DNA of 64,000 bases, from assembly GCA_016839805.1 (NCBI GenBank), contig JAEOTO010000007.1, positions 1 to 64,000 on the forward strand, written 5' to 3'. Positions 12,964 through 43,465 of this stretch are shown in pieces (position 1 is the stretch's first letter; each line of letters opens with the position of its first letter). The notes under the pieces were generated by a model. That model saw only the letters and a program-made list of their open reading frames with translations, had not been told where the DNA came from and searched no databases. The DNA is from Candidatus Hermodarchaeota archaeon (GTDB lineage: Archaea; Asgardarchaeota; Hermodarchaeia; Hermodarchaeales; Hermodarchaeaceae). The translations under genes were made by a program, and so were the position numbers.

Positions 12964-13068
12964 AAAGAGAATGATCTCATTGTGACAACTTTTTAGATTA
13001 CTGTGACAGAAAATGTACAAATACACCGTCACTTGAAAAATCTGGATAAATGTATTATGACACTTTTT
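12964..13068 (+). repeat. cassette-boundary repeat, copies A and B with linker
   Basis: A (12964-12990): AAAGAGAATGA TCTCA TTGTGACAACT. B (13039-13065): AATCTGGATAA ATGTA TTATGACACTT. Linker TGTACAAATACACCGTCACTTGAAA lies between them. Confidence 0.75.
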
Positions 13069-13644
13069 GCATGATAAAACTATCACGGGTCTGCAGTCAG
13101 TTAAGGGGCTTAGATTTCCCTGGCAGCCTTCACGCACGTAGGAGTCAATGTACTTCTATAATCTTCGGTATCCAGAGAATATGGCGATTAAGTACAAGAA
13201 ATGATGTCGACGGAGCGAAAATTCTAGGGGTTTGAGAACTGACTGAACCAGATTAGTTGAGATGCACGGCGTATGTGAGGGACGAGTAGGTGCTACTCTC
13301 CTCGACTTCAAGAACCTATTGGTTAATTGAGGTGAAGATGTGGAGTGCACGGTTGCTTCGCCCAATCAGCTGGTGGGTTGGGGAAATCCTGTGAGCATGG
13401 TTGCAGGATGACATCCTCTGATTGAGAGTGATTGTAGTCAAGAGGTTGAGTGAACTAAACGGTCAACCGTTGACGTGGGGTTTTCACTGATGCAACCGCC
13501 GATGGAAGACCCATTATTAGGAAGAAATTTGGCAGAACTGGCTGATAGCGCTATGACCTCCTATCCCCAACAGGACGATTATTGATTCCAGCCACTATAA
13601 TAGGAACAGCAGCGTTTGAGTAGCACCTAAAATTTTTCTGCCAG

Positions 13645-13690
13645 ATGGGGAATGATCTCATTCTGAGACTTTTTGTACAAATACAACGTT
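13645..13690 (+). repeat. cassette-boundary repeat, copy C with partial linker
   Basis: ATGGGGAATGA TCTCA TTCTGAGACTT TTTGTACAAATACAACGT; shares GAATGATCTCATT with copy A. Confidence 0.7.
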
Positions 13691-13909
13691 TATCGTAAAG
13701 TTGCTAACAACAACTAGCAGCTTATCCCAGAATGCTTTTTTTCTTTCATACAAATACAAAAGCCACGTGGCAAATTCCCCTGTGCGAGTAATTTTTTAAA
13801 ATAGGTTGATACGAGGTTCAGAATGGCGACGTTAAAGGCACTCTTAAAACTTCATCACGAAATACTATGATTCGACTTAACGAACCGAGGACAGCCTAAA
13901 AAATAAACG

Positions 13910-14749
13910 GTGTCAAACATGGTTGGAATACTTATTGCAGCGGCCCTCACCACTGGGATAGTATTTCCACTTTTCTATCTATTTTGGCGTACTTCCAAGA
14001 CATCCGCTTTTACAATCCTTCCTTTCTTGTTCCAATTACCCATGAGTTTGGTGCTCAACTTGACGGTCAAGCCGTGGCTGAACACTGTAATTGTTGGGCT
14101 TGGATTGCCAATGCAAGCAATGCTTCTCCTACTCCTATTTGTGGCACCCTTCACGGAGGAGGCGGTCAAGTTAGTAGGTCTTTCCCTACTCTTTCTTCGT
14201 TGCTTTATTCGCCACGATGTTGGAGAAAACCAGGGGATACCTGCCTGGCGTTGGCTTCGAACGGTGGGTGTTATGAGCGGAATGGGCTTTGGCGTTGGTG
14301 AAATCTGGGCTGTTGCAGTATTAGTAGTTTTATATGAACCTCTTCTGGCGGTCTACCCTTGGTTCTTTTATCAGGGATTCATGATTGAACGCTTCGAAGT
14401 CGTCTTCATCCACGGCCTATTCGGTTTGGTGAGCTACTGGGGGTATCGCCGATGGTTACCTGCCACTTATCTAGCGGCCGTGGGACTACATGCCACACTT
14501 AATGCGCCGATTATCATATATCAATTGGGACTCCTTCCAGCGACGCACTTGTCCCTCTACGTCACACTCTTCTGCGTCATCAGTTTGGCTGTGATGAGTA
14601 CTACTCTGACAACCAAGGACCGCCGCAAACGGCGCCGTTCTCAGTTAGAGACGACTGATAAGCCTGTCACGACTGAAAAGGTTAAGAGACAACCGGAAGA
14701 CCGCATAGTCGGCGATGCCAAGGATAACGGCGACGAGGCTCAGGATTAA
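13910..14749 (+). CDS. PrsW-like glutamic intramembrane protease
   Basis: APFTEEAVK, GMGFGVGE, a conserved His (IHG) and LHATLN motifs; multiple TM segments. Confidence 0.75.
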   Translation: MSNMVGILIAAALTTGIVFPLFYLFWRTSKTSAFTILPFLFQLPMSLVLNLTVKPWLNTVIVGLGLPMQAMLLLLLFVAPFTEEAVKLVGLSLLFLRCFIRHDVGENQGIPAWRWLRTVGVMSGMGFGVGEIWAVAVLVVLYEPLLAVYPWFFYQGFMIERFEVVFIHGLFGLVSYWGYRRWLPATYLAAVGLHATLNAPIIIYQLGLLPATHLSLYVTLFCVISLAVMSTTLTTKDRRKRRRSQLETTDKPVTTEKVKRQPEDRIVGDAKDNGDEAQD

Positions 14750-15385
14750 CCAATCGAATCCTGAACCTTGAAGGAGTCCAATGTAGGGAACGAGCATTGC
14801 GGGAAGAACTATGAACGTACTGATTTGGTAGGCTTCATAGACCGTACTGACCCGACCAGAGATGATGACAGTAAACCCGACAGCCAGAGCCGAGAAGAGG
14901 GGGGGCATAATCAACGCTTGGACGACATCCAGTAGAGTGGGCCACACCCACAGCAAGAAGGGTGCCATAAAGAGGAGCATCCCGTTCATTATGCCAATGG
15001 CTAAGATGAAGTTAGCATAAGCGACTACCAAACCTGGCACAATGGCGGTGAGTGCCTTGCCAAGTAACAGCTCTGAATCGGTAAGTGGCGTAGCCAGTAA
15101 GGGGACTAGGGTGCGGCGCTCTTTCTCGCCTACAATGGAATCAGCCGCAATCATTACGGGTAATATCACCGGCATCATGACGACGACCAAACCCATTGTG
15201 GAGGCCATCATAACACGGTAGAAGAAAGGATCCGGGGGTGCAGGGATTACACTAATTAACCACGCCATAAACACAGAAAACATGACAGAGAATAGAACGA
15301 CCATCACAGGAATGGATTTAACTTGGCGACTCTTGAAGACCATACGGATTTCAGTACGAGCCATTACCCACACTTTTTTCAGCAT
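14645..15385 (-). CDS. ABC-2 type transporter permease
   Basis: AADSIVGEKERRTLVPLLATP...LLGK motif; about 6 TM segments. Confidence 0.88.
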   Translation of the reverse strand: MLKKVWVMARTEIRMVFKSRQVKSIPVMVVLFSVMFSVFMAWLISVIPAPPDPFFYRVMMASTMGLVVVMMPVILPVMIAADSIVGEKERRTLVPLLATPLTDSELLLGKALTAIVPGLVVAYANFILAIGIMNGMLLFMAPFLLWVWPTLLDVVQALIMPPLFSALAVGFTVIISGRVSTVYEAYQISTFIVLPAMLVPYIGLLQGSGFDWLILSLVAVILGIADYAVFRLSLNLFSRDRLISRL

Positions 15386-15392
15386 ACGTTCA

Positions 15393-16331
15393 TCAACCTC
15401 CGATGACTTTTAAGTAGACATCTTCAAGACTGGGCACACGTTCACGGAGCTCCACGATACGCAGACCAGCTTCAATGAGTACATAAACGATGGAAGGATT
15501 GTTGCGGTCGGCTTCCTCTACCACAAAGACGACGCGTCCGCCTTCCATCTTTACTGTCTTAGCGAGACCAGTGGCTTCAACAATGGCTTTGCCCTTGGCT
15601 GGATTGTTATTAACAAGTTGGAGTTCGAAGGTACGCTCAGTCCAGAATTTGTTGCGCAAATCACTGGGGCGCCCGACCTCCATGAGTCTTCCATTGGAGA
15701 TGAAAGCGACGCGGTCGCACACATGTTCAGCTTCGGAAAGAAGATGCGTACACATGAAAAATGTCTGCTTCTGACTTTCACCCATTTTGTCGATGAATTC
15801 GCGTACTTTTTTCGACATGATGGGGTCGAGAATCGATGTGGGCTCATCCAAAAAGACAACTGGTGGATTGTGGACAAGGGCGCGCGCAAGAGATAACTTC
15901 TGTTTAAGACCAGTGCTAAAGGTTCGGGGTGATTCATCGCGCCGGTCGGTGAGCTCAAGGAATTCAAGAAGTTCTTCAATGCGGTTTTGAAGTTCTTCAA
16001 TAGGAACATTATAAAGGCCACCAAAATATTGGAGGTTCTCATAGTTAGTAAGCCGGTCGTAATGGGTGTCTGCTCCATCTTCGGGCAGTAATCCGATAGT
16101 GATTCTCACTTCCTCCGGGTCTTCGAGGACATCATATCCATTAATGAAAACGGTACCTTTGTTTGGTGTAAGGAGTGTGGCTGCTATCTTTACTGTCGTA
16201 GATTTTCCTGCAGCATTCGGACCTAAAAAGCCAAAGACTTCTCCCTTTCGGACATCCAGGCTAACGTTGTTAACTGCCGTAATATCACCAAACTGCTTGG
16301 TTAAATCGTGGATTTCTATTCGTGTTATCAT
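15393..16331 (-). CDS. ABC transporter ATP-binding protein
   Basis: GPNAAGKST, FSTGLKQ, LDEPT and H-loop motifs; C-terminal PSLEDVYL. Confidence 0.92.
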   Translation of the reverse strand: MITRIEIHDLTKQFGDITAVNNVSLDVRKGEVFGFLGPNAAGKSTTVKIAATLLTPNKGTVFINGYDVLEDPEEVRITIGLLPEDGADTHYDRLTNYENLQYFGGLYNVPIEELQNRIEELLEFLELTDRRDESPRTFSTGLKQKLSLARALVHNPPVVFLDEPTSILDPIMSKKVREFIDKMGESQKQTFFMCTHLLSEAEHVCDRVAFISNGRLMEVGRPSDLRNKFWTERTFELQLVNNNPAKGKAIVEATGLAKTVKMEGGRVVFVVEEADRNNPSIVYVLIEAGLRIVELRERVPSLEDVYLKVIGG

Positions 16332-16658
16332 ATCTTTTCCTCGAGTGATGTATTCTCATATTTCCTATTAGCGCCTCTATAATTTAACAATAATTGATTA
16401 TTCCACTTGCAGATTCAATCTGATTCATGCCTTTTAATGATGTCAAGCTCACGGCTTGATATTTGTCACATTCAAAATCTTATTGGGTCAATAGGGTTCC
16501 TCTGCTAGTTACACTTGCTAGTGGGCCAGGGGCGAAAAAGTAATTGGCTGAATCCCAAGACTCAATCGACCAAGAAAATCTTCTCGCTGAATCCCCCGTA
16601 AGGGAATATTCTGGCACACCAAAGAAAGGTGGAAGTATTGGGTCTCCAGGACGACATG

Positions 16659-16723
16659 GTTCTTGATTAATCTATTCTGACACTTTTTGGCAGAATACAA
16701 TGGTTATTGCATAATCTGGATCA
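16659..16723 (+). repeat. cassette-boundary repeat, copy D with linker and left half-site
   Basis: GTTCTTGATTA ATCTA TTCTGACACTT, then linker, then AATCTGGATCA. 16680-16718 is identical to 42529-42567 over 39 bp. Confidence 0.8.
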
Positions 16724-17184
16724 CTCACATTCAACTCGTCCGCATTTTCGCATTATGGCTAGCTGAAAAAGAAAGAGCAGACCGACTAGTGGTAGAAATT
16801 GCAGCCTTACTCCATGATATCGGGAAATACCAAGGACGCAAGGACCACCACATTCACGGTCACAAACTTGCCAAAACATTCCTCAGCAACCAAAACACCT
16901 CACAAGAACAACAACACTTAATCCTAAAATGCATCCTGAAACACCGAACCCGTTTTTACTCTGAGGATAACGAACTCGAAGTTAAAATCATCCAGTGGGC
17001 TGATGTCCTCGGCACCCTCTTCAACGAGAACTGGCAAGAACACTGTAGACAAACGCTCCCTCAAGACCAAATCCAACAATTCTATGACCAAGCGAGTAAC
17101 CTCATAAGCCTTGAATCAGCAAAAACACTTGCCCAACAACGAGCCCAAACCCTATCAGCCATACTAACACAGCAAACAAAATGA
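16687..17184 (+). CDS. HD domain phosphohydrolase, possibly 5'-truncated
   Basis: H..(THIQLV), AALLHDIGK, DHH, ILKH and AD motifs. The only start (TTG) lies inside the repeat. Confidence 0.75.
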   Translation: MAEYNGYCIIWITHIQLVRIFALWLAEKERADRLVVEIAALLHDIGKYQGRKDHHIHGHKLAKTFLSNQNTSQEQQHLILKCILKHRTRFYSEDNELEVKIIQWADVLGTLFNENWQEHCRQTLPQDQIQQFYDQASNLISLESAKTLAQQRAQTLSAILTQQTK

Positions 17185-17318
17185 AAAACATCAATCTTTG
17201 AAGTTTCTAATCACCTGCGCCATTTTCTCACAATATTTCAGCACTTTAATCCGAACCGCCATCCGCCCATTAACTATGTGTTAAAATGAAGGCCTTTGGC
17301 TGATATCTAGTTTGAAGG

Positions 17319-18065
17319 TCATTTGAGAGTTTTGGTCGGTGAGTTTCGAAGATGGCGAATACCTTCATGGATAAGACCGCCTATTCCGATAATAAATACC
17401 ATCAGCCCAGCATAAACTGCAATAATAATTAACATAACCGTGAACATGTTATAGACGCCCAAGAAAATGTTGGTTGCATGGAGACGGTAAAATTCGTTGT
17501 CCTCATCACCATTATGATATTCATAAAACCAAGAAGTAACCAGTCCACATTCGACAACATACCGCCCGACGAACTGATTATTATCGGACATAATTGATCG
17601 AACTCCCACCACAACTTGGAATGAATTACCCTCATCTGCTTCATCAACACCGTCATACCCAATGCGATATATTTGGGCGATTTGATTGGTCAAGAGGTAG
17701 TGCACTGTCTCCCCGTAATCGACATCATTCGCAACCCAAAAATTCGTGGATTGATAAATGGGGAGCGTAAGCTCTGTTTCATTGGTCCACGAAACGTCGT
17801 TCCAGGTACTGACCTTTATAGTTGTAAAGTAAAGAGACCCTGCTACGACTTCCAAGCGTATGGACCCAGGCATCAACCTCCAGTACTCGACATGCCCCCG
17901 AGTGTATATGGCAGAGGCTCCAGGACATCTCAGCCAATTCAGCCGACGCGTCATCGGTTCAGGATAGTTGATGACCGCAAGTGCAAAGATAGATAGCGCT
18001 ATCAAAGCAACAAGGGCATAGGTTCTTACTCGTTGTCGAGGTTTCACTTCACTCTCCACAGCCAA
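17319..18065 (-). CDS. hypothetical membrane-anchored protein
   Basis: N-terminal and C-terminal TM helices around a soluble domain. Confidence 0.6.
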   Translation of the reverse strand: MAVESEVKPRQRVRTYALVALIALSIFALAVINYPEPMTRRLNWLRCPGASAIYTRGHVEYWRLMPGSIRLEVVAGSLYFTTIKVSTWNDVSWTNETELTLPIYQSTNFWVANDVDYGETVHYLLTNQIAQIYRIGYDGVDEADEGNSFQVVVGVRSIMSDNNQFVGRYVVECGLVTSWFYEYHNGDEDNEFYRLHATNIFLGVYNMFTVMLIIIAVYAGLMVFIIGIGGLIHEGIRHLRNSPTKTLK

Positions 18066-18358
18066 CTAGCACATCACACTTTATTAATTTTACTATATTT
18101 ACGATAAAAACAGTTAAAAATAGAACAGAAAACCCGAAAAACCACAATGCCATAGTAGAACCTAAAACGAAAGAAAGGTCAATAGTGGCTCGCATTACGA
18201 ACTAGCTACCAACAGACCATTCCTTAAAGTTCTGAATAACTTGTGTTTTTTCACCGAGATGAATCAAACCTTTGAAACGCATTCCATAGGATCATTCGTC
18301 GTAAACACTGGTATATTGTAAGCTAGGGTTAAAGGCAAACTTCGAACATTGTTTACAT

Positions 18359-19333
18359 ATGTTAGTTTTATTGACCGGAGCCTTTGGAAATATCGGTGAA
18401 AGCACACTATTAGCTCTGTTTGAGCTGAACCATCAGATTCGATGCTTTGATTTGCATACAAAACAAAACGAAAAACTCGCTAAGCACCTACAGAAATATG
18501 GAGACTTCGAAATCGTTTGGGGCGATATACGAGATACTGACACTACCAAGAAAATCGTTGAAGATGTCAAGTGCATCATTCATTTAGCTGCAATCATTCC
18601 ACCCAAAAGTGAAGATGACCCCGAATTCACCCATTCAGTGAATGTTGGTGGAACGTTAAGACTTATAGAAGCAGCAGAAGCTTTGCCTGTAAAACCGAAG
18701 TTCGTTTTTGCCAGTTCAATATCAGTATTCGGACCAACCATGCATCTCCCTCCACCAAGAACAGCGGAGGACCCCCTTAATCCCACTGATGTCTACACTA
18801 CCACTAAAGTCGAAAGTGAAACAGCCCTCCGAGCGAGCACACTTCCCTGGACCATTCTCCGCCTTGCCGCTGTCCCATCTCTCCGAATTAGTGGCGAAGT
18901 AGACCCAATGCTCTTTGAGATGCCATTAAAACAACGAATCGAATTTGTCCACACCCGCGACGTCGGCACTGCATTCGCCAACTCAGTAACCGCGGAGACT
19001 ACGAAGAAAGTCTTACTGATTGGAGGTGGTAAATCCAATCAACTGCTTCAACACGAGTTCATAACCAATATCCTCAACGCCATGGGAATCGGAATGCTTC
19101 CAAAAACTGCGTTTCGCGTCGCAACAAAGACAGAAGAATGGTACTACACCGATTGGATAGATACCACCGAATCACAACAGCTCTTACAATACCAACATTA
19201 CACCTATGACCAATACATCGAAGAACTCAAGCGCGCAATCGGATTCAAACGATATCTAGCACGAATATTCCGAAGTTTCGCACAAAAACGCCTCCTCGGT
19301 CAATCACCTTACTATCAAAAAACTGATAGCTAA
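18359..19333 (+). CDS. NAD-dependent epimerase/dehydratase (extended SDR)
   Basis: TGAFGNIG, HLAA and YTTTK (YxxxK) motifs. Confidence 0.88.
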   Translation: MLVLLTGAFGNIGESTLLALFELNHQIRCFDLHTKQNEKLAKHLQKYGDFEIVWGDIRDTDTTKKIVEDVKCIIHLAAIIPPKSEDDPEFTHSVNVGGTLRLIEAAEALPVKPKFVFASSISVFGPTMHLPPPRTAEDPLNPTDVYTTTKVESETALRASTLPWTILRLAAVPSLRISGEVDPMLFEMPLKQRIEFVHTRDVGTAFANSVTAETTKKVLLIGGGKSNQLLQHEFITNILNAMGIGMLPKTAFRVATKTEEWYYTDWIDTTESQQLLQYQHYTYDQYIEELKRAIGFKRYLARIFRSFAQKRLLGQSPYYQKTDS

Positions 19334-20613
19334 TCCTCGAAGTTCTGGATCTGCTGTTGTTTTTTCTCTATGTTCCAGAAGAAAGCGGCATATAACACAG
19401 TTGAAGTCGAATAACATGTGAGAGTAAACCAGAATGGAACTAGATACAATTGGAGGTCAAATAGGGGTCCTGTCACGAGGGTGCTTAATGCCCAGGGGAA
19501 ATTCCAGGCAAAACCGGAAATTGCACTCATAGTAGGTTGGAAATATTCGGGAACCAGTTCCATACGAAGAGTAGTATCGACAGGCATAGAGGCGTTCATG
19601 AGAACGACTCGAAAGATGTAACTGGTGATAGCTACAAAGGGATTAATGATTGTGGCAATGAAGAAGAGGAAGGGAAGTGATAAACCCTGTGTCACAATGA
19701 CAGTTTTTACTTTGCCAATTCGTGTTGATAGAACCGGTGATAAGAATACTCCCAGTGCGACTGAAAGGGATCCGAGGCCTTGTACTAGGCCCACGACTGG
19801 GGTGGGCAAATTATAGAATTCCCAGAAGAAGATGGTGAGGTAGGGAATTACGAAGCCTGCTCCAAGGCCAATGAAAACGTTGACTAAAGCAAATCGTAGG
19901 GCGAGTTTTTTCACGTCTTTCTTTGCCACAGGCTGTACTGTCTTGTGAGAGAACTCACTACCATTATTTGGTGGGGGACCTTCGGATTCTCGGATCACTA
20001 AGAGAGGTAAAATACTCAGTATAAGGGGAATTACATGAATGAATAGTGCCATTTGGAAGGTGGGGGGGCTATCGAATGGCAATGCATAATAGAGGGAGAA
20101 GAATCCGGGGAGGAAACCTGCTAGTGTGTTTGCGAGAAAGGAGCTGAGAATCATGGCTGACTGGGAGGTGCCAAATAAGTGAGTTCGTTCATAAGAGGTG
20201 CTGGATCGGGTGATGAAGGGGCTAAAAGAAACGTTAAGTAGTGCGAATCCAAGTCCTCCCAACACTGCTGTAATCAAGAGAACTTCAGGAACTGGAAAAG
20301 CTACCTGGCTGAAGCCCACGGTTACAGATATCATCATTCCTACAATGAGAGAATTTTTTGGTCCTACTCGGGTTACATATACTCCCATTACAATGGACGA
20401 GATTGCCATTGACATAGCATTGAGCGACATGAGTCCGCCTAAGAATGCATTGCTGTATCCGATACTGATTAGGTAGAGGTTGAAGAGTGTCTGGGTGATT
20501 CCCCAGCCAAAAGCTCGTGTGAAGTTGCTAATAATGAGCTTTTGTGCATTAGGGCTGAATTGGCGAATACGGTGCCAATAGCTGGTGACTTCCGTTCGGA
20601 GAATAGTGCTCAC
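19330..20613 (-). CDS. MFS transporter
   Basis: About 12 TM segments with MFS-like loop motifs (RVGPK, STRIGK). Confidence 0.85.
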   Translation of the reverse strand: MSTILRTEVTSYWHRIRQFSPNAQKLIISNFTRAFGWGITQTLFNLYLISIGYSNAFLGGLMSLNAMSMAISSIVMGVYVTRVGPKNSLIVGMMISVTVGFSQVAFPVPEVLLITAVLGGLGFALLNVSFSPFITRSSTSYERTHLFGTSQSAMILSSFLANTLAGFLPGFFSLYYALPFDSPPTFQMALFIHVIPLILSILPLLVIRESEGPPPNNGSEFSHKTVQPVAKKDVKKLALRFALVNVFIGLGAGFVIPYLTIFFWEFYNLPTPVVGLVQGLGSLSVALGVFLSPVLSTRIGKVKTVIVTQGLSLPFLFFIATIINPFVAITSYIFRVVLMNASMPVDTTLRMELVPEYFQPTMSAISGFAWNFPWALSTLVTGPLFDLQLYLVPFWFTLTCYSTSTVLYAAFFWNIEKKQQQIQNFED

Positions 20614-20689
20614 AGAACTCTCCTCTAGCTATCATGGTGGGCAGGTTCTTTAGATATTTTAAACTGCTGACTGTTTTAAGGTGAAAGAT

Positions 20690-21850: not shown

Positions 21851-21960
21851 TGTTCTCACATCAACCCGAAATGAAATCGTGAATCGAATCACAATAGTAT
21901 GTGACGTTTAAAGTGCTTCGCAACACACCAAAAACAAACAAACGCTGGTTGCTTAGTTTA

Positions 21961-23177: not shown

Positions 23178-23209
23178 AGAGAAACGGAGAAAGATGGGAG
23201 GGACCTGGA

Positions 23210-24436: not shown

Positions 24437-24445
24437 GAAATACAA

Positions 24446-24853: not shown

Positions 24854-24865
24854 TAATCGAAAGGT

Positions 24866-33928: not shown

Positions 33929-34158
33929 GCTGTCGGGTGGCAGGCACCACATAAAAGGACTGCTAAGGGTTGTTGATAGCTAAAGTTTCAGACGGTTTTA
34001 TGATATTGTGTGTTGTGTGACGGATAATTTTAAATATCGCCTTCAGGCACCGGAACTCGTTCCTGTCCGTAAAGACGGGTATCCCCGATTTTTGAGGGGA
34101 AGAAGAACAGTATTGATTGAAGCATCATACTTGCTATTACATACACCGGTGACAAGCC

Positions 34159-36123
34159 GTGAGTAAAATTGAGATTACGTCAACAGAATCCCGGGTGTTC
34201 CCACCTCCTAAAGCCTTCAGTAAACAGGCTCATATCAAGAACATGGAAGAATTAGGTAAACTTTACCAAGAATCCATCAAGAATCCCACTGGCTTTTGGA
34301 CAAAACAAGCTGAGAAACTCGATTGGTTTGAAAAATGGTCAGAACCTGTTCACACTTGGGATCCAGCTGAAGCACGTCACACCTGGTTTAAAGGTGGTAA
34401 ACTCAACGCCTGCTATAACTGTCTTGACCGTCATGTAAAGGGCGAAAATAAAGACAAAATTGCGATTATCTGGGAAGGTGACGATCCCCAAGAAAGTAAG
34501 ACCTTTACTTTCCAACAACTCCATACTGAAGTCAGTAAGTTCGCTAACGCTCTCAAGAAACTCGGATATAGAAAAGGAGACCGTATGGCAATTTATCTGC
34601 CCATGATTCCGGAACTAGCTATTGCTATGTTAGCATGTGCGCGGTTGGGCATCATTCATAGCATCGTCTTTGGCGGGTTTAGTGCAGACAGTCTGAAAGA
34701 TCGCATTCTGGATGCCAATTGCACAGGTCTCATTACCAGTGACGGGAGTTACCGTGGAGGGAAAACTATCCCTCTGAAGGACAATGCTGATGTAGCACTG
34801 AAAAGCTGTCCCAAGGTAAAACATAACATCGTCGTAAAACGCACTGGCATAGAAGTTGAAATGAGAAAGAAACGGGATCTCTGGTGGCACGAACTCATGA
34901 AGGATCTCGAAGTCCAAGGTGAATGCCCAGCTGAACCAATGGATGCGGAAGATTGTCTATTCATCCTCTATACGAGCGGTTCGACTGGTAAGCCAAAGGG
35001 CGTCCTTCATACCACTGGTGGTTACCTTACATATACTATGACCACCTTCAAGTGGATTTTCGATTATCAACCTACTGATATCTATTGGTGTACTGCTGAC
35101 ATTGGTTGGATTACTGGGCACAGCTATATTGTCTATGGTCCTCTAGCAGCCGGCGCAACAAGTGTAATGTTTGAAGGTGTACCAACCTATCCGGAACCAG
35201 ACCGTTTCTGGGCAATTGTAGAAAAATGGAATATCAACCAATTTTACACTGCTCCAACTGCTATTCGGGCTATCATGCGTCATGGCGACGAATGGGTCAA
35301 CAAACATGATCTTAGCAGTCTAAAGCTCCTTGGTACAGTTGGAGAACCTATCAATCCCGAAGCATGGATTTGGTATCATCAAGTTGTCGGAAAGGGCAAG
35401 ACACCCATTGTTGATACATACTGGCAAACGGAAACTGGGGGAGTAGTCATTTCACCTATTCCTGGTGCAGTTCCACTAAAACCTGGATCGGCCACACTGC
35501 CATTCTTTGGCATAGAAGCAATGATAGTTGACGAGTCGGGCCAAGAAGTAGGTGTAAACGAAGGCGGTTACCTTGTCATTAAGAAACCATGGCCAGGACT
35601 AATGCGCACCGTTTATGGCGACCATCAACGCTTTATTGATACCTATTTCAAGACTTTCCCACCCTACTACATGACCGGGGACGGGGCTCGAATAGACGAA
35701 GATGGTTATTTCTGGGTCGTTGGTCGAATTGACGACGTCGTAAATGTTAGTGGTCACCGTATGGGTACTGCTGAAATCGAATCCGCTCTGGTTAAACATC
35801 CCGCTGTGGCTGAAGCAGCTGTAGTCGGTTTTCCTCATGACATTAAGGGCCAAGCCCTCTACTGCTTTGTTACCCTCAAATTGGGTTACGAAAAAACTGA
35901 TGAGCTAAGACAAGAACTTCGAAAACACGTCCGTAAAGATATTGGTCCCATTGCGACCCCAGATAAAGTCCAATTCGCAGATGCCCTTCCCAAGACCCGA
36001 AGTGGCAAGATTATGCGACGGATTTTAAAGAAAATCGCAGCAGGCGAGACCAAAGATTTGGGTGACACTACAACGTTAGCTGATCCATCAATTGTCCAAA
36101 AGCTCATAAAAGAACGGGTTTAA
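34159..36123 (+). CDS. acs: acetyl-CoA synthetase (AMP-forming)
   Basis: YTSGSTGKPKG, ADIGWITGH, WQTETG and PKTRSGKIMRR motifs. Confidence 0.97.
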   Translation: MSKIEITSTESRVFPPPKAFSKQAHIKNMEELGKLYQESIKNPTGFWTKQAEKLDWFEKWSEPVHTWDPAEARHTWFKGGKLNACYNCLDRHVKGENKDKIAIIWEGDDPQESKTFTFQQLHTEVSKFANALKKLGYRKGDRMAIYLPMIPELAIAMLACARLGIIHSIVFGGFSADSLKDRILDANCTGLITSDGSYRGGKTIPLKDNADVALKSCPKVKHNIVVKRTGIEVEMRKKRDLWWHELMKDLEVQGECPAEPMDAEDCLFILYTSGSTGKPKGVLHTTGGYLTYTMTTFKWIFDYQPTDIYWCTADIGWITGHSYIVYGPLAAGATSVMFEGVPTYPEPDRFWAIVEKWNINQFYTAPTAIRAIMRHGDEWVNKHDLSSLKLLGTVGEPINPEAWIWYHQVVGKGKTPIVDTYWQTETGGVVISPIPGAVPLKPGSATLPFFGIEAMIVDESGQEVGVNEGGYLVIKKPWPGLMRTVYGDHQRFIDTYFKTFPPYYMTGDGARIDEDGYFWVVGRIDDVVNVSGHRMGTAEIESALVKHPAVAEAAVVGFPHDIKGQALYCFVTLKLGYEKTDELRQELRKHVRKDIGPIATPDKVQFADALPKTRSGKIMRRILKKIAAGETKDLGDTTTLADPSIVQKLIKERV

Positions 36124-36132
36124 CACCGTACA

Positions 36133-36182
36133 TCCGTGGGTTCAATAAGAACTCACGGAAGTATTTCTTTTTTTCTTTCTTC
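36133..36182 (+). terminator. intrinsic-type terminator after acs
   Basis: Hairpin TCCGTGGGTTC-AATAA-GAACTCACGGA followed by a T-rich tract. Confidence 0.7.
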
Positions 36183-36316
36183 ACAGGTACTACCACTAAT
36201 TTACTTTTTTCAAGTCTTAATCAGAATTAAGCTGAACCAAATATAATTCATATAAATAGGACCTTAACTAGACTGTTAACGAGTAGTAAAATGGTTTAAA
36301 AGGATGAGTTAGACTG

Positions 36317-36892
36317 ATGACTTTTGGATTAACAGGAATATTCAGCACAATTCGAATGGCTCAGGTTGATATTTCAAATCCACTTTTTTGGCTGGCAGTA
36401 TTTTTCGTATCAGGGTTGGGCGTTGCACTACTCGTTGGAATAATTGCCGGATCTATATTGACTCTGCAGGGCAGAAGTATCCGTAAGAGAGCCGCAGAAG
36501 CGGGTGTCTCAGTTAAGTTACCGAGAAGCGAAGGTGGCATTGATCCTTATGACATTGAGGGATGTGGATATTGTATTATCTTCATTGTAATCATAATTCT
36601 CGGTGCCATGGGGATTTCACTTCCTATCATATTACCCCAGCAAACAGAGGCCATAATAATGGCTGTAGTCCTAGTCATTTTTGGTGGTCTCTTTTGGGGA
36701 TTGGTCATCTGGTCCATTTTCTATACTGCCCGTGAATATCCAAAACGTCGGAAATTACTAGCAGCAGCTTTACAGGGGACTCCCAAAGCCAGGATTAGAA
36801 AAGAGGGAGAAACCCTAACATGTTCAACATGTGGTTTACCTTTACGAGCCGATGACAAATTCTGTGGTAGTTGTGGGGCTGCTACTGATTAG
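36317..36892 (+). CDS. 3-TM membrane protein with C-terminal zinc ribbon
   Basis: CSTCG...FCGSCG at the C-terminus. Confidence 0.75.
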   Translation: MTFGLTGIFSTIRMAQVDISNPLFWLAVFFVSGLGVALLVGIIAGSILTLQGRSIRKRAAEAGVSVKLPRSEGGIDPYDIEGCGYCIIFIVIIILGAMGISLPIILPQQTEAIIMAVVLVIFGGLFWGLVIWSIFYTAREYPKRRKLLAAALQGTPKARIRKEGETLTCSTCGLPLRADDKFCGSCGAATD

Positions 36893-37103
36893 ATTCACAT
36901 CGATGATCGGCTATTCCTATTTGATTTTTTTTTAAAAAAAATGCTCACTATTGTACATATTTTATAAACAGTGATAGTGCATAGACGGTATCTGTGTGAG
37001 AAAGGATGGTTTCAAAAGTACAGTGGGCAAATTTACCTAATATTGCATTAATGATAGCCCGAATCTGTTTTCATAACAAACACAATGGAATGGAGGTGAA
37101 TTA

Positions 37104-37634
37104 ATGAAACGAAAAATATTACCCTGTATTCTAGTGTGCTGTTTATGGTCCCTGACAATCGTTGAAGTAAGTGCCAATGGGTATTGGATGCCAACAGAAT
37201 TTGGGAGCCTGCTTGGTCCTATTCCAGCTCTTGGGCATAAGCATATGCAAAAAACAACCGCTCATTCACGAGAAGAATTCGAATTTAACTGGACAACTGG
37301 TCTTGTTGCCGTTAACTTCCACATTATGAACGCAGTTAACTACCAAAACTGGTCAACAGGCCAGCCTTGGACTGGCACCGTAAATCACCTAAACATCACC
37401 GGTGAAGCCTTTTCCTGGGAAACTTATGGAGCTAATGCCACATATCATTTCATCTGGTACAACCCATCCGTGATTGGTACAAACATAGTTGGTGATTGGC
37501 ATCGTAGTCGATGGGTCGAAGTTGAAGGAAACATACCAGGTTTTCCAATTGAAACCATCGTAATTGGCCTTGCCATTGCAATAGGACTAGGTATTGTCAT
37601 TAGGCACAGAATGAAAAAACAAGATTCGAAGTAA
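37104..37634 (+). CDS. secreted protein with IPGF C-terminal sorting signal
   Basis: Signal peptide, several N-glycosylation sequons, IPGFP + TM + basic tail. Confidence 0.75.
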   Translation: MKRKILPCILVCCLWSLTIVEVSANGYWMPTEFGSLLGPIPALGHKHMQKTTAHSREEFEFNWTTGLVAVNFHIMNAVNYQNWSTGQPWTGTVNHLNITGEAFSWETYGANATYHFIWYNPSVIGTNIVGDWHRSRWVEVEGNIPGFPIETIVIGLAIAIGLGIVIRHRMKKQDSK

Positions 37635-37662
37635 CACTATTAGAAACAATTCAACAGTCATA

Positions 37663-38157
37663 CTACTGCTCTTCAAGAAGTAGTTGTAGGATTTTCTGTT
37701 GATCGCGAACATCGAATACTAAAGCAGCGACCATAGGAATTGGAATAACTACCCATACTAAAACTAAGACGAAATAGAACATGCCAAAGACAAAACTAGC
37801 AATGGCTGCTACAATCCCAATGATAAAGAGGATACAAAAACACCCTTCCGCTGCATTCGCGTCTTGAATTGCGAGTGACCACCCTCGAAAATAGGTCAAC
37901 CTTCCCCGGGTCCATGTGATAGTCTTACCAGCTTCTTCGGCTTTTCTCCTCATTTTTCTTCGATGGAGATTACGAAGCATTATTAAAAATCCGGGGAATA
38001 GAACATCGAAGAAGACACCAGCAAAGACAAAAATGAATGCCACGACAATCGGATCCCAAAATCTTTGTTGCATCAAAAAACCTGTTGTAATAAATGATGT
38101 CAACATCATGAAATGAAAAATCATAGTAATCACGTTACCTTCCCTCCTGATAATCAC
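37663..38157 (-). CDS. membrane protein (RKAEEAG/EGC paralog family)
   Basis: TM segments; RRKAEEAG and EGCFC motifs shared with 36317..36892. Confidence 0.65.
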   Translation of the reverse strand: MIIRREGNVITMIFHFMMLTSFITTGFLMQQRFWDPIVVAFIFVFAGVFFDVLFPGFLIMLRNLHRRKMRRKAEEAGKTITWTRGRLTYFRGWSLAIQDANAAEGCFCILFIIGIVAAIASFVFGMFYFVLVLVWVVIPIPMVAALVFDVRDQQKILQLLLEEQ

Positions 38158-38809
38158 CTAGATGAGCTCCACATCTGCCACAGAACTTATCCGTTTCGGT
38201 GATTGATTCTCCACATACTGGACAACTCGTAGGTTTGTCTTTCATTGGTTTCTCTCTAAGAAGTGGTGTTGATGTCTTATCCACTGCTTCGGAATACCTT
38301 CGACTACCCCGTCTTAATCCGATGATTCCACAAACGAGAATGATTGGTATGATCACCGCAAAGAGCACCGCCATAACTACGAATCCAATTAATTGACCGA
38401 CTTCTTCAGGAACAAGTGGGAAAGTTGGAAGTGGGATATCAAAGAGTATCATGAAACCAGCAATTGTCACAATTGCAAGGAAGCAGAAGAATGGATATCC
38501 GTGAGAGAGAGATTCATCTTGGTGGGGAGGTTGTGGTTTCACCACAGGAATTACTTGCTGTTCTAAGGCTTGCTTTTTTAGCTTTGCATGGCGTCTACCA
38601 TAGATGCAGCATATAAGAGATAGAATAATTGTAAATCCAATTCCAAAAATGATAGCATAAACAAAAAGATTGTCGATATTGAACCCAGGAGCCTGAGCGA
38701 GTATATTTGTATATGTCAAGAACTGATGTATCATCTTTGGGAGACTAGATTGATCAAGTATTTGTCGTGCTATTGCCATTAGAGAACACCCTAGAAATGT
38801 TTCATACAC
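38135..38809 (-). CDS. 3-TM membrane protein with C-terminal zinc ribbon
   Basis: CPVCG...FCGRCG at the C-terminus. Confidence 0.72.
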   Translation of the reverse strand: MYETFLGCSLMAIARQILDQSSLPKMIHQFLTYTNILAQAPGFNIDNLFVYAIIFGIGFTIILSLICCIYGRRHAKLKKQALEQQVIPVVKPQPPHQDESLSHGYPFFCFLAIVTIAGFMILFDIPLPTFPLVPEEVGQLIGFVVMAVLFAVIIPIILVCGIIGLRRGSRRYSEAVDKTSTPLLREKPMKDKPTSCPVCGESITETDKFCGRCGAHLGDYQEGR

Positions 38810-39038
38810 TGTACTTAGTTTTTTAAATAAGTTATTTCAGTTACATATTCCACAGAAATAAACTGATTCTGTGCGCTAGAACTACATTTACTTTGTTCAC
38901 TGCTTTAATATTGTTTGTAAAGGGTTTTTAATATTTTAAGGGCATATAGTATTTATTAAATATGGAAAGCTTTTTCAGTAATAGCAAATCAAAGAATTCA
39001 ATTACCCAGCTTATGGGAAAAAACTGGGAGAGATCATC

Positions 39039-39635
39039 ATGGTTTCGGCTAAAATACCAAAAGTATTGGCTGTTATTGCACTGGTCGTAAATCTCATCGC
39101 AGTACTCATAACGGTCTATTGGCTCATCCAAATCTGGATACTTATCGGGTGGATCATTATCATTCCCTTTATTGGCATCATTTTCCTTGCGATGATCCTT
39201 GGCCCCTGGCTCTTAACGTTCATCTTCGTCTTAATTTTCACACTAATCCTCCCTCTACGAACATATCGTGACATTACTCCAGAAAATCCCCAGTCACCTG
39301 CCACTATCTTCGCGATAGGCGGAATCATTGGAATTATACTCGGCGCTTTCGGCCTATTTCCCAATCCTCTTATTGCTTTTGTATTCTTGGTTTTTGGACC
39401 TAGCGTGCTTTTTAATGCTGTTCCTCAACTCATCGGAGGAATTTTCCTGGTAATTGCAGGTGCGTTATCATTAACAGTAGAAGAGGAATATGAAGCAACA
39501 CCTCCCATAGAAGAACCAAAAGAACCACCAAGTCCTTCAGTAACTGAAAAGTCCGAAGTTAACATATGCCAATCATGTGGATCCGAGTTGTCCGAGAATG
39601 AGAAATTCTGTCGGAATTGCGGTGCAGAAGTGTAG
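39039..39635 (+). CDS. membrane protein with C-terminal zinc ribbon
   Basis: About 4 TM segments, Pro/Glu linker, CQSCG...FCRNCG. Confidence 0.75.
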   Translation: MVSAKIPKVLAVIALVVNLIAVLITVYWLIQIWILIGWIIIIPFIGIIFLAMILGPWLLTFIFVLIFTLILPLRTYRDITPENPQSPATIFAIGGIIGIILGAFGLFPNPLIAFVFLVFGPSVLFNAVPQLIGGIFLVIAGALSLTVEEEYEATPPIEEPKEPPSPSVTEKSEVNICQSCGSELSENEKFCRNCGAEV

Positions 39636-39676
39636 CAGATATTAAAAAGAACGCACAGAAAATGGAGTGAACCTAA

Positions 39677-40144
39677 TTGGATTTCCGAAAGCCTGCTAGA
39701 ATAACTATCTTGATTGGAACCATTATCGGCTTAATTCCTCTTGCACTCTCAATATTGGCAACCGTCACACTCATTATCACTTGGTGGGAATTCATAGTGA
39801 CCCCAATTCTAGGGCTTGGTATGATTATCTACTTAGGTATCGCAATAGTCCTAATCGTCGTAATTTTGATTCTCAACATCATTATTCCACTTATTGGGTT
39901 TTTCCGAATTCACTATGAAATCAGGGAGCGCTTTTCCATTATCTTCCTATTCATTGCTATTATCACATTCTTTCTCGCATACCTTTTCTGGGAACTTTGG
40001 CTAGGACGTGCACCTGAGATATTTCCAATCTTCAGCATGGCATTCGCACCATTCTCATATTTTCTCATGATCTTTCTAATTGCAGTTGGAATTGTCTATA
40101 TTTTGGCTAGTATACTTACAATTCTCATTCGCGAACCAAGTTAA
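39677..40144 (+). CDS. hypothetical 4-TM membrane protein
   Basis: Very hydrophobic; topology similar to the upstream gene. Confidence 0.65.
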   Translation: MDFRKPARITILIGTIIGLIPLALSILATVTLIITWWEFIVTPILGLGMIIYLGIAIVLIVVILILNIIIPLIGFFRIHYEIRERFSIIFLFIAIITFFLAYLFWELWLGRAPEIFPIFSMAFAPFSYFLMIFLIAVGIVYILASILTILIREPS

Positions 40145-40265
40145 TAACCAAGCTAAATACAAGTGCAGTTGTGTGACTTAACAACAGATTATGCCATCTT
40201 CATCAAAGTGAGAAATTTTAGTTAATAGCTTTGTCCATACCGGTTAATGATGGAAGCGCCTGTAT

Positions 40266-40294
40266 TATCTGGAAAATGCTATTAAGACACTTTT
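40266..40294 (+). repeat. cassette-boundary repeat, copy E
   Basis: TATCTGGAAAA TGCTA TTAAGACACTT TT. Confidence 0.72.
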
Positions 40295-40414
40295 AAGTCG
40301 GTGGACCCAACCTCAAAAATAGAAGATAAATTGAGTATTGGCGGTGTTTTCCTATAAAGGTGAATTAAGTTTTGTTTAATAGTTCGCATTAGTAATTGAT
40401 ACTAGGGTGGTTCT

Positions 40415-41470
40415 ATGGAGTCGCTGCTAAGAAATTGGAATGGGGAAAGCGTGATTATCCGCTTTGATCGACCTTCAGGCGCTTGGATAATCATCGCCAT
40501 TCATTCGACTTTTCTAGGACCCGCAATAGGTGGCACGCGTATGAAGTCTTATCCGAATTTTAAAGCTGCCCTAGAGGATGCTCTTCAATTAGCAGCCAGC
40601 ATGACTTACAAATTTGCAGCAGCTGATTTCCCTTCTGGCGGTGGTAAAGCTGTAATCGCGCTCCCTTCCTCCTTCGACATACATGAGAGACCGAGCTTAT
40701 TGCGGCATTATGGGACATTGCTGAAGCAATTAGGTGGGTTGTTTCAAGCTGGACCTGATGTAGGAACCTCTCCTGCCGATATGGATATTATAGCAGAGAC
40801 CGGGGCACCATTTGTTTTTTGTCGAACCCCCGAAAAAGGGGGAGCTGGAGGTTCGGGAAAATGGACCGCCCTAGGCGTCTTTCATGGCATGCAAGCTGTA
40901 TGCAAACAGCTTTTTGACAATGAATCACTTAGGGAGCGAGTCGTCATGGTTCAGGGAACGGGTAGTGTTGGTCACCCATTGATTGAGTTACTATTGAAGG
41001 ATGGAGCTGAGGTATTGTTTAGTGAAGTAAACCAAACGGCTATTCAACATTTCCGCGATAAACTCAAATTGCCATTTGTCCCACCTAAACGCGTTTATGA
41101 TACTCCCTGTGACATATTTGCGCCCTGTGCTTTAGGTGGAATTCTTAACAAGGATACGATTCCCCGTCTGAAATGCACCGCAATTGCTGGAGCCGCCAAC
41201 AACCAACTCGCTGAACCAACCGATGCTGTGAGACTAATGAAGAGAAATATCTTGTATGCACCTGATTTTATAATTAGTATAGGTGGAGCCATGGCAATCA
41301 TTGGAATTGAGAGAATGGGCTGGTCAACAGATGAAGCCCGAGCGAAAGTAAACTCAATTAAGCAAACAATGCTGCGAGTTTTTAAACTGGCTAAAGATGA
41401 CCATATTACTACTGATGCCGCGGCTAAACGTATAGTTGACTCTCGACTGTCTAGAACTGAAAGTAAATGA
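40415..41470 (+). CDS. Leu/Phe/Val amino acid dehydrogenase
   Basis: GGTRM, MTYK, GGGKAVI, GPDVGT, QGTGSVG, APCALG and GAANNQL motifs. Confidence 0.92.
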   Translation: MESLLRNWNGESVIIRFDRPSGAWIIIAIHSTFLGPAIGGTRMKSYPNFKAALEDALQLAASMTYKFAAADFPSGGGKAVIALPSSFDIHERPSLLRHYGTLLKQLGGLFQAGPDVGTSPADMDIIAETGAPFVFCRTPEKGGAGGSGKWTALGVFHGMQAVCKQLFDNESLRERVVMVQGTGSVGHPLIELLLKDGAEVLFSEVNQTAIQHFRDKLKLPFVPPKRVYDTPCDIFAPCALGGILNKDTIPRLKCTAIAGAANNQLAEPTDAVRLMKRNILYAPDFIISIGGAMAIIGIERMGWSTDEARAKVNSIKQTMLRVFKLAKDDHITTDAAAKRIVDSRLSRTESK

Positions 41471-41513
41471 CGAAAAAGATGTGGGCGGAAAGACTAGATA
41501 GGAATAATCAAAA

Positions 41514-41542
41514 TTTCTGGATGAGCCTATTATGACACTTTT
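41514..41542 (+). repeat. cassette-boundary repeat, copy F
   Basis: TTTCTGGATGA GCCTA TTATGACACTT TT. Confidence 0.75.
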
Positions 41543-41678
41543 CTATGGATATTTTACTTGAATCCGTCTTGTGGCGTAGGGGCTCATTTTTGCCTGATAC
41601 GGAAAGCGCTATCTTTGCGTGTGTGCTGCCCCTGGCTAGTGAAATATTGTCTTGTAGCCAGCCAATGCTTGAATTGCT

Positions 41679-42350
41679 TTAGAATCCAACGGTTTCTCCG
41701 AGTAAGATAATTGTTGAATCTGTATGGACAGGTCGGCGTTCAATTATCGTCGTTACATTGCAGATCCTATTCGGTGACTCACAATCTGAACAGATACCAG
41801 TTTTTGCACATGGCACTTGAAAATTTAAGCGTTTAGCGTTCATTGGAGCCGCGACATATCTGATTCTGTCCATGGCTTGTTCCACATTCCTGACTATCTT
41901 ATTTACTCCTGCAATGATGATAACCTTCTGCGGGCCAAAGATCATAGCAGCGACACGTTGACCAGCGTGATCAATGTTAACGAGATGGCCTTCCTCTGTG
42001 ATCGCGTTAGTGCTTGTCAAAAAGATATCCGCGTGTGCCAGCATTTTTCTTGCTTTCATCACGTCTTCCGGTTTTTGTCTTTTCTTTTGTGCCTCCCAGT
42101 GACTAATAATTGTATTTCCTCGTTGTTCAAGGGAATCTACAAGACCAATTTCCCTTATAGTGACAGATCCTCCAACGCCTACTAAGGCATTAGGAGGAAT
42201 AAGCTGTAAGACCCTAGCCATAACTTCATTTCTTGTAGGAAAATACATCACGTCAAAGCCATTCTTTTTCAGTGCAGTCAAGGTTCTTTGAACCTTCTTT
42301 TTCCAATACCAGTTCCTAACCTCCTGCCACACTTTTACATCATGCCACAT
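41679..42350 (-). CDS. LUD domain (lactate utilization LutC/YkgG-like) protein
   Basis: GGSVT, TSTNAIT..G.LVNID, GVNKIV and APMNAKRL...PC...GICSDC...RIC motifs. Confidence 0.85.
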   Translation of the reverse strand: MWHDVKVWQEVRNWYWKKKVQRTLTALKKNGFDVMYFPTRNEVMARVLQLIPPNALVGVGGSVTIREIGLVDSLEQRGNTIISHWEAQKKRQKPEDVMKARKMLAHADIFLTSTNAITEEGHLVNIDHAGQRVAAMIFGPQKVIIIAGVNKIVRNVEQAMDRIRYVAAPMNAKRLNFQVPCAKTGICSDCESPNRICNVTTIIERRPVHTDSTIILLGETVGF

Positions 42351-42461
42351 TTTACCACCACATTAAATGCTAAGTTAACAACCCAAAAATACCTTTCATA
42401 GTAGTACTAGCAAAATCAATAGATATTCAGCATCAATCATTGTAAGGAAAAAATCAAAAAA

Positions 42462-42572
42462 GGTACGAATACATCGATAGTTGAAAAATCTGTAAAGGGG
42501 CATTATGACACTTTTGCAAATTATTGTAACACTTTTTGGCAGAATACAATGGTTATTGCATAATCTGAATTT
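42462..42572 (+). repeat. cassette-boundary repeat, copy G with linkers on both sides
   Basis: GGTACGAATACATCGATAGTTGAAA AATCTGTAAAG GGGCA TTATGACACTT (42487-42513), then a 21-bp sub-repeat and the 39-bp copy of 16680-16718. Confidence 0.8.
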
Positions 42573-42689
42573 GGTTCCTTAGGATTTAAGATGCAGGCGC
42601 TCCTCAGGATAAATGAACACTATTCTAGAATTATTACTATTTGATACTGTGAAATCCTGTCATGGCTTTCCGAGAAAGGGGCTAGGTCC

Positions 42690-43346
42690 TTGCGGCTTAT
42701 CAGTTCTTTTTTTAATTTTTTTGAAGCAGGACCTTTTTTATTCGATGGTTCAAGCATAGCTGTTGAGGGAATATCATTCATTCTTACATTAGTTAGTGGG
42801 GTTTTGGTCTTTGGCGTCCTTCGATGGCGAACACACCGTAAGCTTGCACCCTATCTGGTTACGCTGGGCGTTATGCTCCTTTTCGCGGTGTTGGAAACGT
42901 GGATCGTCACGATTTGGCAGCCCGACCTCGGGCGACGTGATCTAGAAGACGCCGTAGCTAAGTTTTTCGCCTTCCCTTACACCGTAACTATACGTGAAGG
43001 CGAGTTTCTATGGATATATTCCTATATCGGTGTACTCATTGAGTGTGGAAACCTTCGATTGTTTCTCTTTTTATCCCCTACAGTTATTCATGGGTCAGCT
43101 GAAATGGTGTTCTGGTTCGCCCAGATCCGGCTGCTGGCCTTCCGCATCGTCATCAGTTTTCACCTCATCGCCCTCCTCCTCTTCATGCTCATCTTAACCA
43201 GCGTCGATATCATCTACAGGCGATTCCACATCCGAGCTGTCACCAAACACTCAAAGGCAGCCCATGAGGGGTTCTCGTGCAGCTCTGAGGAAGAACGAGC
43301 GGATGGTAGTGTTACTCAAACCGCTTCAAGGAACTTAGCTTCTTAG
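42690..43346 (+). CDS. hypothetical membrane protein
   Basis: Several TM segments; lies between repeat copies G and H; start uncertain. Confidence 0.55.
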   Translation: MRLISSFFNFFEAGPFLFDGSSIAVEGISFILTLVSGVLVFGVLRWRTHRKLAPYLVTLGVMLLFAVLETWIVTIWQPDLGRRDLEDAVAKFFAFPYTVTIREGEFLWIYSYIGVLIECGNLRLFLFLSPTVIHGSAEMVFWFAQIRLLAFRIVISFHLIALLLFMLILTSVDIIYRRFHIRAVTKHSKAAHEGFSCSSEEERADGSVTQTASRNLAS

Positions 43347-43430
43347 TTGAGGAGCACCGGTTAGAGTGGTAGTACTGAAGTTTTGGTGGGTACAATACAC
43401 GTAGCGTGCGGTATTTCCTTTTTTAATCGG

Positions 43431-43465
43431 TTGCAGAATCTGGATAATCCCATTGTGACACTTTC
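43431..43465 (+). repeat. cassette-boundary repeat, copy H
   Basis: TTGCAG AATCTGGATAA TCCCA TTGTGACACTT TT. Confidence 0.78.

Follow-up and report, generated by a model that had tools for sequence, protein, structure and literature searches.

A TCTGGA-containing repeat as the probable junction site of mobile gene cassettes in the Asgard archaeal genus Candidatus Hermodarchaeum

What is the role of a short repeat that occurs several times, always in the same orientation, at the edges of functionally unrelated genes in an archaeal genome? The question is raised by a stretch of 64,000 nucleotides from a Candidatus Hermodarchaeota archaeon (GenBank assembly GCA_016839805.1, contig JAEOTO010000007.1, positions 1 to 64,000), which we refer to as the window. 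An earlier inspection of its letters, here called the sequence-only reading, described eight intergenic copies of a motif consisting of two 11-nt arms around a variable 5-nt spacer, and proposed that the copies bound individual genes that are captured or shuffled as cassettes by a recombinase encoded in trans. The genome carrying the window (G000) comprises 2.31 Mb in 50 contigs, and we compared it with 14 other genomes of the genus Candidatus Hermodarchaeum (G001-G014; 15 genus genomes with G000), all of which are metagenome-assembled genomes (MAGs). We conclude that the motif probably serves as the junction site for mobile gene cassettes, which would form a family specific to this genus. What is directly observed is that the units have definite boundaries, are shared between species, are present or absent at the site and carry no recombinase of their own.

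The eight copies are found where they had been placed (12964, 13039, 13645, 16659, 40266, 41514, 42487 and 43437), all on the + strand, as are two left half-sites at 16713 and 42562. The right arm on its own is only weakly over-represented in the genome (13 matches versus 7.0 expected). A 32-nt matrix trained on the eight window sites and applied to 4.6 million positions of the 2.31-Mb genome is, by comparison, highly specific: exactly 10 positions score above 20 bits, namely the eight window copies and two additional ones at C18:6628 (36 bits, outside the training set) and C18:8956 (21 bits), and just 6 positions outside the family score above 16 bits. Leave-one-out scores of the eight copies range from 16 to 32 bits, and the scan agrees with the earlier statement that reverse-strand copies are absent. 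The copies fall into three short clusters on two contigs, at 12.9-16.7 kb and 40.2-43.5 kb of the window, which are 24 kb apart, and at 6.6-9.0 kb of contig C18. Seven of the eight window copies lie between long open reading frames (ORFs), in keeping with the intergenic placement claimed for all of them; the end of the copy at 16659 runs into an HD-domain ORF that starts with TTG at 16687. The distance from the motif to the next + strand start codon is not fixed but varies from 150 to 265 nt, and some copies adjoin - strand genes, two of them facing the 3' ends of such genes.

Reading of the flanks shows that the 27-mer is a piece of a longer modular structure. From left to right it consists of a 6-bp core TCTGGA, a spacer of 7-8 nt whose sequence differs from unit to unit, a box ATTNTGACAC, and a run of three to five T. 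At many unit ends the core is preceded by a B box of about 26 nt, with the variants GGCAGAATACAATGGTTATTGCATAA or GTACAAATACA..., and right ends most often take the form of a 66-nt composite in which a box, 7-8 nt, a second box, the B box and the core follow each other in this order, the two boxes standing 21 nt apart. Such composites end in a core, and it is these closing cores that had been recorded as half-sites at 16713 and 42562. Of the 11-5-11 anatomy, the repeat itself stands, while the copies at 12964 and 13645 have neither left arm nor core and are the first boxes of composites. The arms do not form a convincing inverted repeat, only 6 of 11 positions being complementary, and exchange within the 5-nt spacer is not borne out: the point of exchange lies at TCTGGA, inside what had been taken for the left arm, and sometimes at the box. 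The cores of integron attC sites, GTTRRRY/RYYYAAC, are absent from all copies, as had been stated.

Evidence for mobile units comes from comparison with the relatives, where the enclosed genes are not kept in synteny and breakpoints lie at the motif. In an alignment of nine right ends, taken from eight genomes, similarity extends to ...ATCTGGA and gives way at once to unrelated sequence (alignment A1); ten left ends, likewise from eight genomes, have unrelated sequence ahead of TCTGGA and are similar from there onward (alignment A2). Whole units recur in different surroundings. Six other species have copies of the window's ABC-transporter unit (13660-16720, +), on G006:C14, G008:C34, G013:C88/C403, G005:C130, G001:C14 and G011:C34, with 88-95% identity over the stretches corresponding to 13660-15562 and 16186-16419, whereas neighbouring and ordinary genes are only 65-80% identical and lie on other contigs (65-72% for the genes flanking the ABC unit). 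Similarly, the LUD unit (41516-42494, +) is 89% identical from site to site in G009:C51 and G011:C16 with unrelated flanks, its similarity ending at 41512/41516 and 42495/42515. Taken together, the synteny, the recurrence of whole units and the breakpoints support the proposal that genes are captured or shuffled at the site by an enzyme encoded elsewhere.

Presence or absence of units at the site is seen as loss and as gain. In run X2, which belongs to an unrelated study of sediment, a contig of 3.3 kb has 41515 directly followed by 43439 and is missing the 1923 bp between them, that is, the LUD unit and the following membrane-protein unit; because the seven letters TCTGGAT fit both sides, this is a core-to-core joint. 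Contig G013:C124, from a close relative with 90-96% identity, is without 42536-43451, with breakpoints inside two boxes. As regards gain, contigs G006:C34 and G000:C11 are collinear, with about 70% identity, save for a 2.7-kb insert in the former that follows the stop codon of a conserved gene. The empty site in G000:C11 reads GTAAC|TGGAAGAAACACATAAAC, and the filled site in G006:C34 reads GTAAC-ATTCTGGA-spacer-box ... TATC-TGGAGAAACACATAAAC, with TCTGGA at both junctions, from which it follows that the target already had CTGGA. In G012:C93, about 9.3 kb ending in a composite separate two sequences whose distance in G000:C15 is 0.7 kb. Insertion can also cut host genes at the right end: the HD-domain ORF of the window has its start within a composite, and a NUDIX-like gene, of which G000:C21 (49071) has an intact version, starts only past the core in G009:C114.

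An intergenic hot spot was encountered in the course of these comparisons. At G014:C19:18336-18494, two conserved genes are separated by about 46 nt, and the same place in G004:C36, G006:C75, G007:C22, G008:C34 and G011:C16 holds mutually unrelated inserts of 1.1-2.4 kb. Boxes are present at the hot spot in the G011 insert only, and a clean pre-insertion state for the G011 LUD insertion was not found at this hypervariable location.

How the strands might be exchanged is suggested by the behaviour of the spacers. A core plus spacer of the TGAACCT type precedes the LUD body, the ABC body in one metagenome locus (L142), a composite in G005:C316 and yet another body in a second metagenome locus (L141), and the body found at 13041 occurs with differing spacers (A2). 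Shared spacers with different bodies and a shared body with different spacers place breakpoints at both borders of the spacer. Since the spacer travels now with the right-hand DNA and now with the left-hand core, exchange would take place at one or the other border of a centre of 7-8 bp whose match between partners is dispensable. Tolerance of mismatched centres is known from tyrosine recombinases, namely with the coupling sequences of Tn916/CTnDOT and in single-strand exchange by Xer on integrative mobile elements exploiting Xer (IMEX), and makes an enzyme of this type the likeliest. In the mechanism that we propose, circular units would excise and insert, their joined ends restoring the order B box, core, spacer, box, and a recombinase encoded elsewhere would exchange strands at the core. 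A circle could enter a core-like chromosomal sequence, so that a bare 'half-site' would remain to its right, or it could enter the core of a resident unit, by which arrays of one orientation would be built up.

The sequence-only reading had raised the prospect of a tyrosine recombinase next to one of the clusters. A PF00589 search of the 15 genus genomes found no intact one linked to any array, and a recombinase is not among the recurring cargo when the 388 ORFs within 2.5 kb of boxes are clustered. Serine recombinases (PF00239) are absent from all 15 genus genomes, a Y1 HUH transposase (PF01797) occurs in one of them only (G013:C208, away from boxes), and IS110-type enzymes have no PF01548 or PF02371 match in G000, the sole genome searched for them. 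Thirteen of the 15 genomes, including each reasonably complete one, carry a single XerA-type tyrosine recombinase of about 315 aa. The G000 protein (C28, 315 aa) is closest to XerA of P. abyssi (4a8e; E-value 6.6e-52) and scores 266 bits against a cut-off of 220 bits with NF040815, the NCBIfam model of archaeal XerA; these genes are either not on the contigs that bear the arrays or a long way from them. A second, sporadic type of integrase is represented by a 359-aa protein in G000:C24, and a frameshifted, N-terminally cut relative of it follows directly after a site in G009. A canonical dif (an 11-6-11 ATAA/TTAT palindrome with at least 9 matched arm bases) was not found in G000, and relaxed dif scans of that genome gave unconvincing candidates only. 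By elimination and from the behaviour of the site, our best guess for the enzyme is a tyrosine recombinase acting in trans, which would be either the host's XerA or an integrase encoded by a plasmid or virus that was not binned.

Several observations weigh against the recombination model, some of them against XerA in particular. XerA and six other intact integrases have no site within 1.5 kb, and the flanks of the core are not clear inverted repeats, which a site for homodimeric XerA would need. The genome contains the 6-bp core about 1350 times, so further target features must exist. The deletions in run X2 and G013 could stem from slippage or homologous recombination in the 27-nt repeat, and the base-level comparison with an empty site covers one insertion only, between genomes that are about 70% identical. 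Furthermore, the data are MAGs, in which repeats of 30-90 nt fragment assemblies and several copies stand at contig ends, and a circular junction was not observed among the assembled contigs.

The points about the two deletions lead to the best surviving alternative, that there is no dedicated system and that the repeat is a conserved signal between genes, such as a terminator with neighbouring promoter elements, on which homologous recombination or slippage acts, shuffling, deleting and importing the intervening DNA. Each box is followed by three to five T, a plausible archaeal terminator; six of the eight copies are downstream of + strand ORFs; both deletions lie between direct copies and break within the repeat; and box-to-box joins such as that at 13645 fit homology as well. 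What homology does not account for is that similarity ends at the 6-bp core in nine right and ten left ends, that 2.7 kb were inserted into a site sharing only CTGGA, and that host genes are truncated at the core. The uniform orientation, kept even around - strand genes, and the confinement to three clusters instead of an occurrence at most genes also speak against it. We therefore regard this explanation as unlikely, though still deserving of some weight.

A second alternative, which we consider improbable, arises from a TnpB element that adjoins the site: the units could be derivatives of TnpB-type (IS200/IS605-like) elements, or the box could be the guide target in TnpB-guided homing, with cuts that lead to copying of neighbouring DNA. 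At C18:6657-8567 (locus L040), a GC-rich element (55-65%) lies inside a unit on the opposite strand, with a TnpB ORF at C18:6963-8402 (-; 99 bits to NF040570) whose 3' non-coding tail directly adjoins the T-run of the box. With the tail flush against the box, the part of the guide RNA that is read from the flank is predicted to be the reverse complement of the box plus spacer. A TnpB of 65% identity occupies the same position in metagenome locus L124, and about 20 nt of the tail are kept in units without TnpB (40295-40315 in the window, G006 and G004); strict co-orientation and insertion beside a fixed short word are, moreover, typical of IS200/IS605. Against a causal role of TnpB, the C18 gene is single-copy and without a close copy in the genus (40% identity for the next best), its strand is opposite to that of the units, and its GC content marks it as nested foreign DNA. 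The TnpB remnant is absent from most units, the Y1 transposase is confined to one of the 15 genomes, and strong subterminal hairpins were not found. TnpB does not account for the units themselves, because boxes are absent at other TnpB loci. The arrangement rather suggests, as judged from the sequence, an RNA-guided nuclease element that may be specialised on cassette junctions.

The third alternative, a transcription-factor operator or specialised promoter of a regulon without a role in rearrangement, would suit the intergenic, asymmetric and fixed-orientation motif and the two boxes 21 nt apart, which resemble tandem protein-binding sites, but it is very improbable given the variable start-codon distances, the two copies facing 3' ends of - strand genes, the functionally unrelated genes, and relatives that show breakpoints at the site instead of conserved synteny.

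Junction sites of mobile gene cassettes remain, in our judgement, the probable identity of the motif. The more specific picture, namely integron-like capture without an integron, in which XerA or an unseen enzyme would recombine the site composed of TCTGGA, a mismatch-tolerant 7-8 bp centre and ATTNTGACAC and thereby move single-gene units from species to species and to many places in the chromosome, with a TnpB nuclease, its guide reading the same site, specialised on the junctions in addition, is tentative and as a whole rather doubtful.

The arrays of the window can be described in these terms. The first one starts with a degenerate right-end composite at 12979-13046 (+), made up of a box (12979-12994), a box remnant (13002-13013), a B box (13014-13040) and the core TCTGGA (13041-13046), a part order that matches the genus-wide composite (A1). 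The core also opens a left-end module of 135 nt (13041-13176, +) that continues with the spacer TAAATGT, a box at 13054-13068 and about 110 nt, and closes with an inverted core TCCAGA at 13171-13176 (TCTAGA in relatives). Similarity among the ten copies of this module from eight genomes starts at TCTGGA and fades near the inverted core (A2). The inverted core may be an inversion site or a second type of boundary. The consensus fold of the module is weak (-4 kcal/mol), the only notable pairing being that of the core with the inverted core. The right-end module (A3) has one possible compensated hairpin, for which nine similar sequences provide too little power. RNA genes were considered separately: the window and four related loci have no Rfam match at the gathering score or at E-value thresholds 1-5, and no tRNA.

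The left-end module is followed at 13177-13644 by non-coding filler peculiar to G000, which has no long ORF and no Rfam match and for which no similarity was found in relatives beyond 13176. At 13645-13674 (+) stands a core-less junction, where a first box of the composite type (13660-13674) is fused straight to the body of the ABC unit. The copies of this body in G008 and G013 have a core, a spacer and two boxes before them, so the join at 13645-13674 lies inside the box. The ABC unit encodes a membrane protein (13910-14749, +), an ABC-2 permease (14645-15385, -) and an ABC ATPase (15393-16331, -), and its GC content of 0.49 compares with about 0.43 for the genome; the GC content of cargo often departs from the genome mean. 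Part of the ATPase gene, 15563-16186, is missing from the otherwise 88-95% identical units in G006, G008, G011 and G013; either the relatives hold a truncated ATPase or the window copy was repaired from a paralogue. The unit ends in a composite at 16659-16720 (+; box 16674-16688, B box 16689-16714, core 16715-16720), and host DNA begins right after this core, such that the first 11 codons of the HD-domain gene (16687-17184, +) come from the composite.

The second array starts with a junction site at 40268-40315 (+) that consists of a core (40268-40273), a spacer, a box (40281-40294) and the roughly 20 nt resembling the TnpB tail, and it is followed by a cargo gene of the Glu/Leu/Phe/Trp (amino-acid) dehydrogenase family (40415-41470, +). 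Next comes the LUD unit, with its core at 41516-41521, spacer TGAGCCT, box at 41529-41542, a LUD-domain-like gene on the - strand (41679-42350), a B box at 42462-42486 and a worn core TCTGTA at 42489-42494. An empty mini-unit occupies 42495-42569 (+): spacer, box (42502-42515), box (42523-42537), B box (42538-42563) and worn core TCTGAA (42564-42569). It belongs to a repeat family (D3) in that it is 94% identical to 16673-16721 and 80-95% identical to sequences in 11 genus genomes. The membrane-protein unit (42570-43438, +) carries a gene at 42690-43346 that has a second copy in G000, 79% identical, at C43:14125-14776. The array closes with a junction site at 43439-43464 (+; core 43439-43444, spacer TAATCCC, box 43452-43464), which is the right side of the joint in run X2. 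Further types of cargo in the genus include small membrane proteins, an AAA-type ATPase, a 167-aa protein recurring in G006 and G004, and non-coding fillers. Cargo genes point in either direction, so the individual genes do not each have the site as their promoter or terminator.

Two other features lie upstream of the arrays. A short word AGCGCCTGTAT precedes both of them (12901-12918 and 40245-40265) and resembles part of a conserved module, 170-420 nt in length, that other genomes have upstream of their composites; the two copies may be worn remnants of that module. Just upstream of the second array, 36317-40144 holds five neighbouring genes for small multi-pass membrane proteins, three of which terminate in a zinc-ribbon motif (..FCG.CGA..).

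Outside G000, the composite is present in 11 of the 14 other genus genomes at 75-98% identity, often at contig ends. Among 185,579 species represented by one genome each, the exact degenerate composite pattern matches only MAGs of Hermodarchaeota/"Promethearchaeota", including Candidatus Hermodarchaeum, and a single 2.3-kb contig that is binned as a spirochaete. Public metagenome contigs contain about 14 true composite copies among 27 matches, about half of the 27 being chance or coding matches in other organisms, which were set aside; the composite is absent from the viral contigs searched. Several site families, for example one with the core TCTGGA and one with a core such as TACTCACAAA, may coexist in the phylum Hermodarchaeota. 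A separate repeat family of about 145-230 nt and 77-88% identity was also noted, with a member at L035:2959-3185 (G006:C34) and others scattered over ten G000 contigs, among them C2, C4 (where it overlaps 7662-7805), C8, C21, C26, C29, C41, C44 and C45.

Known systems share some of these properties. Integrons are known as sedentary chromosomal integrons, as integrase-less clusters of attC sites (CALINs) and from archaea (Ghaly et al. 2022, PMC9668308). The likeness to them consists in arrays of small, mostly one-gene units with one site orientation and without a recombinase in the units, in the occurrence of the same unit in different species and positions, and in empty mini-units and accessory cargo. 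In contrast to integrons, the arrays described here have no IntI beside them, no attI platform and no common promoter, and their site (TCTGGA, 7-8 bp spacer and box) is not a folded attC with GTTRRRY/RYYYAAC cores; the genes point in either direction, and the arrays stand at several chromosomal places and are able to cut host genes. The Xer-exploiting elements, i.e., IMEX such as CTX and TLC phages and the pdif modules of Acinetobacter, resemble the present units in the use of a host enzyme in trans (which here is our supposition, a host XerA being present in 13 of 15 genomes), in the dif look of the site (..ATAA, short centre, TTATG.., with one well-kept and one loose arm), in serial entry that yields tandem elements of the same orientation, and in the tolerance of mismatched centres via single-strand exchange. 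They differ in that the centre measures 6 bp rather than 5 nt (the sequence-only reading) or 7-8 nt (the revised anatomy), the arms here are not inverted repeats, at least three loci take the place of the single dif at the replication terminus, and pdif modules are bounded by oppositely oriented sites.

Three further groups of elements are relevant. Tn916 and CTnDOT likewise have a short centre that differs between the partners, apparent breakpoints at either of its borders and weakly specific targets, but they are large and bring their own Int and Xis, none of which is seen here. Cis-mobilizable elements (CIMEs) and accretion arrays at the 3' ends of tRNA or other genes likewise contain integrase-less tandem units, presumably moved in trans, whereas in our case the end of the host gene is not duplicated and the target shares only the 5-6 bp core. 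IS200/IS605 and TnpB elements have in common with the present units a fixed short word at insertion, co-orientation, the lack of a long target duplication and a TnpB nested at the box, and differ in that the Y1 transposase is lacking in 14 of 15 genomes and TnpB is single-copy and on the other strand. Functionally, integrons and Xer-exploiting elements are the nearest systems, yet the cassettes lack the defining features of both, and we found no published description of a TCTGGA cassette system in the literature.

Among known organisms, Asgard archaea are the nearest relatives of eukaryotes, and the ways in which they acquire genes are under active discussion. The present finding amounts to a concrete, sequence-defined route of gene exchange between Asgard species, given that exact-ended small units are about 90% identical where ordinary genes are about 70% identical. 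In Hermodarchaeum MAGs, searching for the site can also help to locate accessory genes and to delimit foreign DNA. If XerA is indeed the enzyme that acts on the site, a housekeeping system of chromosome resolution would double as an archaeal gene-capture machine; if it is not, an unknown recombinase awaits discovery.

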